From the NCBI RefSeq assembly GCF_051903065.1, contig NZ_CP178442.1: 37,672 bases of DNA; one strand, written 5' to 3'. The translations under genes were made by a program, and so were the position numbers. Below are positions 14,999-15,418 of this stretch, piece by piece (within the stretch, counting starts at the first letter, position 1; every line of letters begins with the position of its first letter). A model generated the notes under the pieces. That model made no database searches. It was given only the letters and a program-made list of their open reading frames with translations, and was not told the origin of the DNA. The DNA is from Escherichia coli. Lineage in GTDB: Bacteria > Pseudomonadota > Gammaproteobacteria > Enterobacterales > Enterobacteriaceae.

Positions 14999-15418
14999 GT
15001 TGCGCCCGTAGCTCGCTGACGCTCACACGCGCAGTACAGCGCCCCGCCATGCTGCAATGCACCAGGGCGGGGTAAACTCGCTTGCGCTCGCGCTAACTGC
15101 GGCATTCTGCGGCGCAAATCAGCATAATCATAGCCTGCTGGTCAGTTGGGCTTTGCAGGGTGAAGGGATGTCCTGTGCGCCCTGGTACGTTCATCAGCGG
15201 CTGCGCCGCGCTTTGGGGCGATGTGGCTCCTGTGCTGCCCTGGTATTTTCGTTCGCCCCTTCCATCCGCTTACGCGGATTAAAAAACGTGATAACAATCA
15301 CTTATCGAGTAAAAAAACGGGAGAACACTTGCAAATACGACTTAAAGGTCGTATTATTGTTTCATCGAAAGGGGAATGGCCCCTCTCACAATAGCCCAGC
15401 AGGGCAGGAGATTTAAAA
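14999..15418 (+). repeat. about 420-bp GC-rich direct repeat, copy 1 (ends just before the ATG of the J-domain gene)
   Basis: Sequence from gttgcgcccgtagctcgctgacgc to caggagatttaaaa recurs at 17079-17498; the ORF track yields identical 119-aa translations (15057..15416 and 17137..17496), showing nucleotide identity across at least 357 bp. Confidence 0.85.
15329..15357 (+). promoter_or_regulatory. near-consensus sigma70 promoter inside repeat copy 1 (TTGCAA -17 bp- TATTAT)
   Basis: ttgcaa at 15329-15334 and tattat at 15352-15357 with 17-bp spacer, about 60 bp upstream of a caggag RBS and the ATG at 15420. Confidence 0.45.

Follow-up and report, generated by a model that had tools for sequence, protein, structure and literature searches.

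Why should a plasmid carry the same 420 bp twice, each time directly in front of a different gene? The question is raised by the window analysed here, i.e. the whole stretch of 37,672 bp of Escherichia coli DNA under accession NZ_CP178442.1, which is a complete IncX4 plasmid of the same length as pSD11 (NZ_KM212169.1). Its two repeats, called copy A and copy B below, are leading-region cassettes of the CUP (conserved upstream repeat) type known from IncN plasmids, in a variant without the ArdK system that also occurs in IncI2, IncFII and IncX6 plasmids. Each is composed of three parts: a ~290-nt module of 60 % G+C, a promoter with a palindromic spacer and a leader of ~55 nt. With a probability that we put at about 0.55, the cassette would act as a primase-type priming signal, by which the adjacent repressible promoter would become double-stranded soon after its entry into a recipient.

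Extent and anatomy of the repeats

The two copies (Table 1) were identical at all 420 positions, and every sub-feature of copy A recurred in copy B at +2080, the start-to-start spacing. Identity began abruptly, with C at 14998 before copy A and A at 17078 before copy B, and ended inside a run of A residues, which reads GATTTAAAAA-ATG in copy A (ATG at 15420) and GATTTAAA-ATG in copy B (ATG at 17498). A chance origin of an exact repeat of this length is excluded. The gene behind copy A encodes a J-domain protein of 171 amino acids, that behind copy B an unrelated protein of 99 amino acids, for which the RefSeq start (17456) falls within the repeat itself. An earlier reading made from the letters of the window alone (hereafter the sequence-only reading) had described two identical ~420-bp repeats in front of different genes, and both statements were borne out, divergence setting in only from the A-run on. 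It had also called the upstream part GC-rich and of poor coding character. Positions 14999-15286 indeed displayed 60.8 % G+C, versus 41.8 % for the whole plasmid. The internal open reading frame (ORF) of 119 amino acids (15057-15416), present in both copies here, was shortened to 71-77 amino acids in IncI2/FII copies and missing from other FII, IncI2-like, IncX6, pJARS36 and IncN copies (these relatives are presented below), and indels of 1 nt and 4 nt were tolerated in this region among relatives. This ORF comparison refuted the coding reading at the level of conservation and agreed with the functional cassette, instead of a gene duplication, that had been suspected.

The promoter following the module was kept in all relatives with its TTGnnA -35 box, its 17-nt spacing and its TATTAT -10 box, as was the TCATCG that follows the -10 box; its counterpart in the CUPs of the IncN plasmid R46 reads TTGACT-17-GATAAT. 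The boxes pointed out earlier were thus real, but their description as near-consensus was somewhat generous for nine matches out of 12. The spacer palindrome had half-sites that stayed complementary while differing between plasmid groups, namely ATACGAC/GTCGTAT in X4, ATACATC/GATGTAT in IncI2 and FII, TAGGTC/GACCTA in X6 and ATACGTC/GACGTAT in pJARS36. It is likely an operator. Followed by a T-rich tract, it was also flagged in a scan as a weak terminator-like hairpin.

Both hairpins of the predicted leader held their pairing through double substitutions (GCCC/GGGC, GTCC/GGAC, GCCGC/GCGGC, GCCCC/GGGGC), and the last ~55 nt therefore form a genuine structured leader; its transcription start, roughly 15364-15366, was derived from the position of the -10 box. 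A structured leader had been among the earlier proposals and exists in this short form, but the G+C-rich ~290 nt precede the -35 box and hence are not a 5' leader of that promoter. The Shine-Dalgarno sequence ascribed to each copy was found as AGGAG in copy A (Table 1).

The J-domain operon of the copy-A type travels with the cassette in all five plasmid groups, and always terminates in a gene for an XRE/MqsA-like helix-turn-helix (HTH) protein of 72 to 85 amino acids. The recognition helix of this protein changed along with the half-site of the palindrome: GLRTW was encountered with ACG(A/T)C, GLSTW with ACATC and TARSW with AGGTC. Because of this correlation, the 75-amino acid HTH protein of the window (16817-17044) appears to be the best candidate for a repressor of the cassette promoter.

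Relatives in other plasmids and kinship with CUPs

The sequence-only reading had recommended a search for the element in other plasmids, and it turned out to be widespread. The 420 bp were found at an identity of at least 95 % in about 470 plasmid records, mostly with two copies each, and the first 288 nt at ~90 % identity in ~600 further records. The whole cassette architecture, and not only the G+C-rich part, was kept in five further backgrounds, represented by records of IncI2 (p94EC-3), an IncFII F-like plasmid of Shigella dysenteriae, the IncI2-like pE105-2 (NZ_CP072313.1), IncX6 (pGN28-KPC) and Yersinia pestis pJARS36; CUPs in IncN plasmids complete this distribution. In these five backgrounds two to five copies per plasmid were located between the partition genes and the origin of transfer (oriT), in the same orientation as the genes, and ended in CAGGAG-N8-ATG, each before a different small gene. 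Their place in the F-like plasmid was that held by Frpo1 and Frpo2 in F.

A profile built from 14 cassette copies matched R46 three times over profile positions 26-377 (nhmmer, E 1.8e-14, 1.4e-13 and 4.2e-13). The matches were three 425-bp direct repeats upstream of ccgAI, ardA and ccgD, which shared motifs and hairpins with the cassettes in the alignment. They are the CUP elements of pKM101 and R46 (both IncN), reportedly first described in 1997. CUPs have been presented as a promoter with an ArdK-binding site that governs a regulon of the leading region, and also as recombination substrates (PMC5371602, PMC6289460, PMC3490853, PMC5027574); in 2018 the function of these conserved regions of >400 bp was said not to have been examined in depth (PMC6294495). 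The class of element has thus been known since 1997 and, on the strength of the profile matches, the IncX4 repeats are its distant homologues, a relationship that the sequence-only reading had missed.

Like CUPs, they are repeats of >400 bp in a single orientation directly upstream of different leading-region genes, with a G+C-rich structured 5' part and a sigma-70 promoter near the 3' end at a fixed distance from Shine-Dalgarno sequence and ATG, and both are prone to recombination between copies. They differ in that identity was only about 55-60 %, in about 25-30 nt more between hairpin A (see below) and the -35 box, in the other sequence of the operator-like 20-bp palindrome, and in the plasmids themselves, since the IncX4, IncI2, IncFII, IncX6 and pJARS36 backbones carry MOBP or MOBF relaxases. 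ArdK and ArdR of R46 were not found in the window (tblastn, best E 3.4 and 0.032, respectively), and no text was found in the literature that names the IncX4/IncI2 repeats CUPs or links CUP to IncX plasmids.

The copies of a given plasmid resembled each other closely. Those of the mcr-1 IncX4 plasmid pFS170G (31511-31930 and 33591-34010) displayed six substitutions with respect to the present plasmid, common to both, and differed mutually at only five positions near their ends. The shared substitutions indicate that the repeats are homogenised within each plasmid (concerted evolution). An apparent gene swap behind copy B in mcr-1 IncX4 plasmids was rejected, as it reduced to a different annotated start.

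A circular record of 2,080 bp (pE2022-4; NZ_OR345924.1) consisted of exactly one repeat plus the J-domain operon, i.e. the unit 14999-17078 of the window, and the sister record of 33,144 bp that comes from the same strain (NZ_OR345923.1) displayed a single cassette copy. The small circle probably arose by recombination between the repeats; an assembly artefact is the alternative.

In the IncI2 plasmid (5638-5899) and the F-like plasmid (4485-4746), the copy before the J-domain gene was a conserved deletion form. Element positions about 50-204 were gone, with the junction at a short CGCC repeat; this form is devoid of the start block and hairpin D presented below and has kept hairpins C, B and A as well as the promoter.

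Position relative to the origin of transfer

The plasmid harbors the MOBP relaxase gene taxC, a VirB-type type IV secretion system (T4SS), hns, hha, a gene for topoisomerase III and an IS26-cfr insert. The segment 19401-19451 is likely an RP4-type oriT nick region; its layout agrees with the nick consensus of RP4-type (MOBP) origins. The nick is predicted on the minus strand between 19403 and 19402, and the segment adjoins taxA/ddp1 (start 19503) and the relaxase gene taxC (start 20010), both on the plus strand. As the nick motif lies on the minus strand, this would be the transferred (T) strand, with its 5' end near 19402 and the leading region at lower coordinates. The cassette genes are on the plus strand and point to oriT, so that the T strand is their template.

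The repeats are situated 1.9-4.4 kb into the leading region. A recipient would first receive hicBA, then a gene for a protein of 121 amino acids and the 99-amino acid gene, next copy B, and after it the J-domain operon with copy A behind it. The same arrangement was found in the F-like (IncFII) plasmid, the transfer polarity of F-like plasmids being textbook knowledge. A T strand serving as template is the polarity reported for leading-region genes generally (PMC11541004).

Table 1. Features of the 37,672-bp window (positions as in the window; T strand, transferred strand)
Feature	Position	Strand	Description
Cassette copy A	14999..15418	+	420/420 identity to copy B; runs up to the ATG of the J-domain operon
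Cassette copy B	17079..17498	+	420/420 identity to copy A; runs to the ATG (17498) of the 99-amino acid gene
Distal half of module (3' half on T strand)	14999..15148	-	Covarying hairpin 15042-15072; invariant CGCAGTAC 15030-15037, which is GTACTGCG on the T strand
Start block CCCTGCAAAGCC	15149..15160	-	Most conserved unpaired motif of the family, CCTG..A.GCC
Stem-loop array	15161..15284	-	On the T strand, 5' of the start block: hairpins D, C, B, GGAAGG, A
Sigma-70-type promoter TTGCAA-17-TATTAT	15329..15357 (copy B 17409-17437)	+	Consensus scan, 9/12
20-bp palindrome ATACGAC-N6-GTCGTAT	15335..15354		Fills the spacer and overlaps the -10 box; no strand; compensatory variation among plasmid groups
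Predicted 5' leader	15364..15419	+	Hairpin 15370-15384; hairpin 15394-15405 abutting AGGAG 15406-15410; A-run
Operon served by copy A	15420..17044	+	J-domain protein (15420-15935), 180-, 83- and 75-amino acid proteins, the last HTH (16817-17044); ORFs, annotation, NCBIfam matches
99-amino acid gene served by copy B	17498..17797	+	No family match
Likely oriT core	19401..19451	-	21-nt inverted repeat (19410-19451), then TATCCTG/CA (19409-19401) on the minus strand

The module on the transferred strand

Read 5' to 3' on the minus strand, the module displays hairpin A (ATCCGC-GTAA-GCGGAT, 15279-15264), GGAAGG, hairpin B (GGGGCGA...TCGCCCC, 15259-15215), AAAGC (GAAGC in nearly all relatives), hairpin C (GCGGC-GCA-GCCGC, 15209-15197), hairpin D and finally the unpaired-looking start block CCCTGCAAAGCC (15160-15149). 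Hairpins A to D were found in 18 out of 18 aligned family members. For hairpins A and C, 98.8 % of the cells across these 18 members were paired and five out of ten pairs displayed a compensatory change, values that none of 500 shuffles reached. The T-strand loop of hairpin A was GNNA in 12 of the 18 members and ANNA or TTT(A)A in the others, always with A as last base; that of hairpin C was GNA or GNNA in 12 of the 17 members having this hairpin, X4 included. On the complementary strand both loops would be pyrimidine-rich. In the CUP-type copies these loop types resemble those of stem-loop I of phages G4 and alpha3.

In the distal half of the module, the conserved hairpin (Table 1) displayed compensatory changes (AU, UA or GC at one pair) and a 4-nt loop indel; this half could be a second primase site. 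Long-range pairs proposed by RNAalifold for the plus strand (e.g. columns 244:418) were not trusted.

Kinship with priming signals

The order of hairpins and start block recurred 710-850 nt downstream of repA1 in R100 and at the corresponding site of replicons of IncFII, IncI2 and IncN. There it was invariably on the strand opposite repA, which would template a leading strand running away from repA. It was met again in ssiE of F, on the transferred strand and ~600 nt from oriT. A core profile made from CUPs only detected R100 90380-90519 at E 3.6e-6 and the repA-proximal site of IncI2 at E 3e-9, and a profile made only from origin-proximal and dispersed sites detected ssiE at E 1.3e-9 (E 9e-5 with a joint profile). 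The site about 400 bp downstream of oriR in R1/R100 was reportedly recognised in 1989 as a primase-dependent 'G site', and ssiE is said to be among the ssi signals isolated in a study of 1991.

In the record of phage G4, the primer of the complementary strand is annotated at 3970-3997, the origin at 3998. According to this annotation, priming begins across from the T of CTG in CCCTACTGCAAAGCC, immediately 3' of stem-loop I (GGACGGCGAAAGCCGCCGTCC). CTG is the preferred initiation triplet of the primase DnaG. At the most conserved block of the family, the X4 and IncI2 cassettes have the 10-mer CTGCAAAGCC in common with the origin of complementary-strand synthesis (oric) of G4. Most other members read CCTGCTAAGCCC there, exactly as oric of alpha3, St-1 and phiK does in this position (GGAAGGCGTTAGCCGCCTTCC-CTCCTGCTAAGCCCAAAA). 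On the viral (template) strand of these three phages, the start site was matched by the core profile with E 0.0015-0.0022.

The likeness to the G4, alpha3, St-1 and phiK origins, to the R1/R100 G site and to ssiE of F consists of a stem-loop array followed by a putative start block on the template strand, CCTGC(A/T)AAGCC with CTG, of GNNA/GNA hairpin loops, and of a location on the strand that becomes single-stranded. In contrast to such signals, the putative one of the cassette is fused to a promoter and duplicated before genes, has the extra hairpin D between the TACTG-like position and the start block, and continues in a further conserved extension of 150 nt 3' of the start. Homology and motifs together point to an affinity of the module with primase-type priming signals, rather than with RNA-polymerase-type single-strand promoters.

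pE105-2 displayed the module without a promoter as well. Four ~140-nt G-site-like elements (10601-10741, 14979-15119, 23722-23861 and 35660-35802) and one promoter-less CUP module (21376-21658) were dispersed in intergenic gaps of the T4SS region, all on the predicted T strand and 2-12 kb apart, as if T-strand conversion were primed at intervals. Such promoter-less modules argue for a function independent of the promoter. Nine of the ten family members of this plasmid were on the T strand, including those at sites where the neighbouring genes run the opposite way, the lone exception being 36095-36233.

The window itself contains a weak stem-loop/CCTGCCAGGCC member of the family at 19169-19264 (core profile E 0.058), on the plus, i.e. 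retained, strand. Situated right behind hicB and at ~150 nt from the predicted nick, it could either prime the replacement strand in the donor or merely be a terminator region.

Proposed mechanism

The T strand would enter the recipient 5' end first and, within each cassette, in the order gene, promoter, module, so that gene and promoter would already be inside when the module arrives. Host DnaG would recognise the stem-loop array and the exposed start block on the T strand coated with single-strand-binding protein, as it does at a G4-type origin or a plasmid 'G site'. Priming would begin across from the T of CTG, at 15157 in copy A (predicted 5' end pppA, AGGGUGAAGG...) and at 17237 in copy B, and the primer would be extended toward higher coordinates, hence toward oriT. 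Hairpins D to A would be copied on the way, as would promoter and gene, which would become duplex within seconds. The duplex promoter would then fire because the recipient contains no repressor, resulting in a burst of expression (zygotic induction), until the plasmid repressor, for which the 75-amino acid HTH protein is the candidate, would occupy the spacer operator and shut the promoter off. Leader and Shine-Dalgarno sequence would complete the cassette. These steps fit a description of F in which the entering strand is converted discontinuously and with repeated priming (Fraikin et al. 2026).

Homology and the sharing of motifs suggest the priming function; the coupling of priming to expression is a new and testable reading, to which we give about one chance in three. 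That IncX4, IncI2 and related 'H-NS-type' plasmids have a priming signal hard-wired upstream of each repressible promoter, with local duplexing as the trigger of zygotic induction, and that IncN CUPs behave likewise, is a tentative generalisation that we consider less likely than not.

Several observations weigh against the priming model. The whole-element profile did not match oric of G4 significantly (E 0.69), and only the ~29-nt alpha3-type start region scored. Fold z-scores were modest, -1.5 and -2.0 (distal half -2.0) versus -4.3 for oric of G4, and by themselves too low to speak for structure. In the X4 copy, a weak 4-bp stem is predicted to include CTG, and TACTG, which most relatives have after hairpin C, is absent. 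The comparison of G-T with C-A wobbles, as a guide to the folding strand, revealed both kinds and was ambiguous. The model does not account for the distal 150 nt with their conserved covarying hairpin and invariant GTACTGCG. A typical IncI2 plasmid displayed no dispersed elements in the profile search beyond those of the leading region and oriV, so that pE105-2 is the sole source of the argument from dispersal. The repressor assignment is based on three or four independent lineages. Finally, the model presumes that the R100 site is the 'G site' and that ssiE is a primase-type signal.

Alternative explanations

The sequence-only reading had offered, as a hypothesis, a single-strand promoter of the Frpo/ssi type, in which the T strand folds into a hairpin promoter, RNA polymerase transcribes the single-stranded DNA and the RNA perhaps also primes. 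Such a promoter calls for a place in the leading region and for the transferred strand to be the template, and both agree with the nick motif on the minus strand at ~19402. Like Frpo and ssi1-3 (class 1) and the class 2/3 promoters of pESBL, the modules are G+C-rich structured islands, repeated, on the T strand and upstream of leading-region operons. Those elements serve early expression in the recipient and perhaps the priming of DNA synthesis too; ssiE of F is listed beside Frpo under 'known Frpo and ssi sequences', and new single-strand promoter classes unrelated in sequence are still being found (PMC12672017). No sequence relationship was detected, however. Frpo1/2 of F and ssi1-3 of ColIb-P9 gave no match at E<=0.01 with the default word size of blastn and, with word size 7, a best E value of 0.27 against the element and of 0.007 against the window as a whole, whereas the published surveys require E<1e-6 and known Frpo sequences found one another under the same settings. 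BLAST and profiles likewise revealed no likeness to eight of the 13 published Frpo'/Frpo* candidates (Samuel et al., supplementary table), the five others and the class 2/3 sequences themselves lying outside the comparison, and the profile search of the F leading region retrieved ssiE only, with nothing upstream of the klcA and methylase homologues, a location from which class 2/3 homologues have been reported. Frpo homology was rejected on these blastn and nhmmer results. Minimum-energy and centroid folds of the minus strand contained no long stem rebuilding the -35 and -10 boxes: the structured part does not include the only good promoter, which pairs with nothing but itself in the 8-bp spacer hairpin, and no conserved -35/-10 pair was found in any module stem. 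Isolated modules without a downstream gene also exist. No paper linking IncX4 with Frpo was found beyond a general review. In the priming model, the first polymerase would instead be primase, and the logic fast duplexing, not transcription of single-stranded DNA. The ssi-type affinity suspected earlier thus survives in the homology of the G+C-rich part to ssiE and to the site downstream of oriR in R100, but not as an RNA-polymerase-type promoter; the Frpo idea was probably right on place and strand and wrong on mechanism, and we consider it improbable.

A purely double-stranded cassette, with a strong promoter and operator and a 290-nt part serving as a platform for regulators or nucleoid proteins (e.g. 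an H-NS/Hha insulator) or as a recombination handle, is unlikely as well, if a shade less so than the Frpo type. It finds support in the description of IncN CUPs as a promoter with an ArdK site, whose mutual recombination rearranges the regulon, in the H-NS, Hha and topoisomerase III encoded by the plasmid, and in the one-unit circle and concerted evolution of the copies; it leaves unexplained the compensatory changes that keep hairpins instead of sequence, the homology to origin-proximal sites and to ssiE, the strand-specific dispersal in pE105-2 and the G4/alpha3 start block. Far less probable is a structural roadblock, at which the stem-loops would stall complementary-strand synthesis arriving from upstream and prolong the single-stranded state. 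The stem-loop of the F single-strand promoter does act as such a roadblock and delays conversion (Fraikin et al. 2026), and the module is a dense array of G+C-rich hairpins; yet its predicted stability is modest, delayed conversion would delay expression because the downstream promoter is of the double-strand type, and the vegetative origins of R100, IncI2 and IncN, at which a block would do harm, share this architecture. Just as little credence was given to an RNA element of the plus strand, be it the upstream operon's structured 3' untranslated region or its terminator, or else a long leader or riboregulator transcribed from further upstream. Each copy is preceded by genes of its own orientation, from which no strong terminator separates it, the spacer palindrome with its T-rich tract is terminator-like and the plus strand folds too, but the isolated module of pE105-2 is antisense to its neighbours, the relatives at replication origins lie outside transcription units of that sense, there is no Rfam match and the loop asymmetry favors the minus strand. 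The duplication of a real gene for the 119-amino acid protein can practically be dismissed: both copies contain the ORF, and for some of the matches a hypothetical protein is annotated in RefSeq, but the ORF was truncated, frame-shifted or absent in every other lineage.

Significance

IncX4 and IncI2 plasmids are epidemic carriers of mcr-1, and their establishment in new hosts was called 'largely unexplored' in a review (PMC8744291). According to surveys by BLAST with five Frpo/ssi sequences, hns-carrying plasmids almost never have such elements (PMC12826799); they do hold a conserved, repeated and strand-specific element at that position, from another family. Even if the priming model is wrong, CUP-like regulon cassettes that drive recombination and evolve in concert are now annotated in IncX4, IncI2, IncFII and IncX6 plasmids. 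If it is true, coupling to priming would account for the 400-bp length of CUP repeats and would represent a second solution to the expression of genes from an entering single strand, with a logic opposite to the delayed conversion in F. It would also offer a defined target of 150 nt with a predicted primer start (15157/17237), and the deletion-form copies before the J-domain gene in IncI2 and F-like plasmids should then not prime.

Additional observations

Two palindromes were noted upstream of copy A, one perfect and 36 bp long (TGTTAATGCTAATGTATG/CATACATTAGCATTAACA, 14945-14980), at a distance of 18 nt, and one of 16 bp (TGTGTATTAATACACA, at about 14904-14919) further upstream; no counterpart of either was found upstream of the cassette copies in other plasmids. 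A scan of the window with Rfam detected no family over the repeats. Its sole match was the Bacillus small RNA ncr1575 (4529-4746, minus strand), which scored 110.7 bits against a gathering threshold of 60. It lies inside the IS26-flanked cfr insert and was presumably brought along from the Gram-positive source of cfr.

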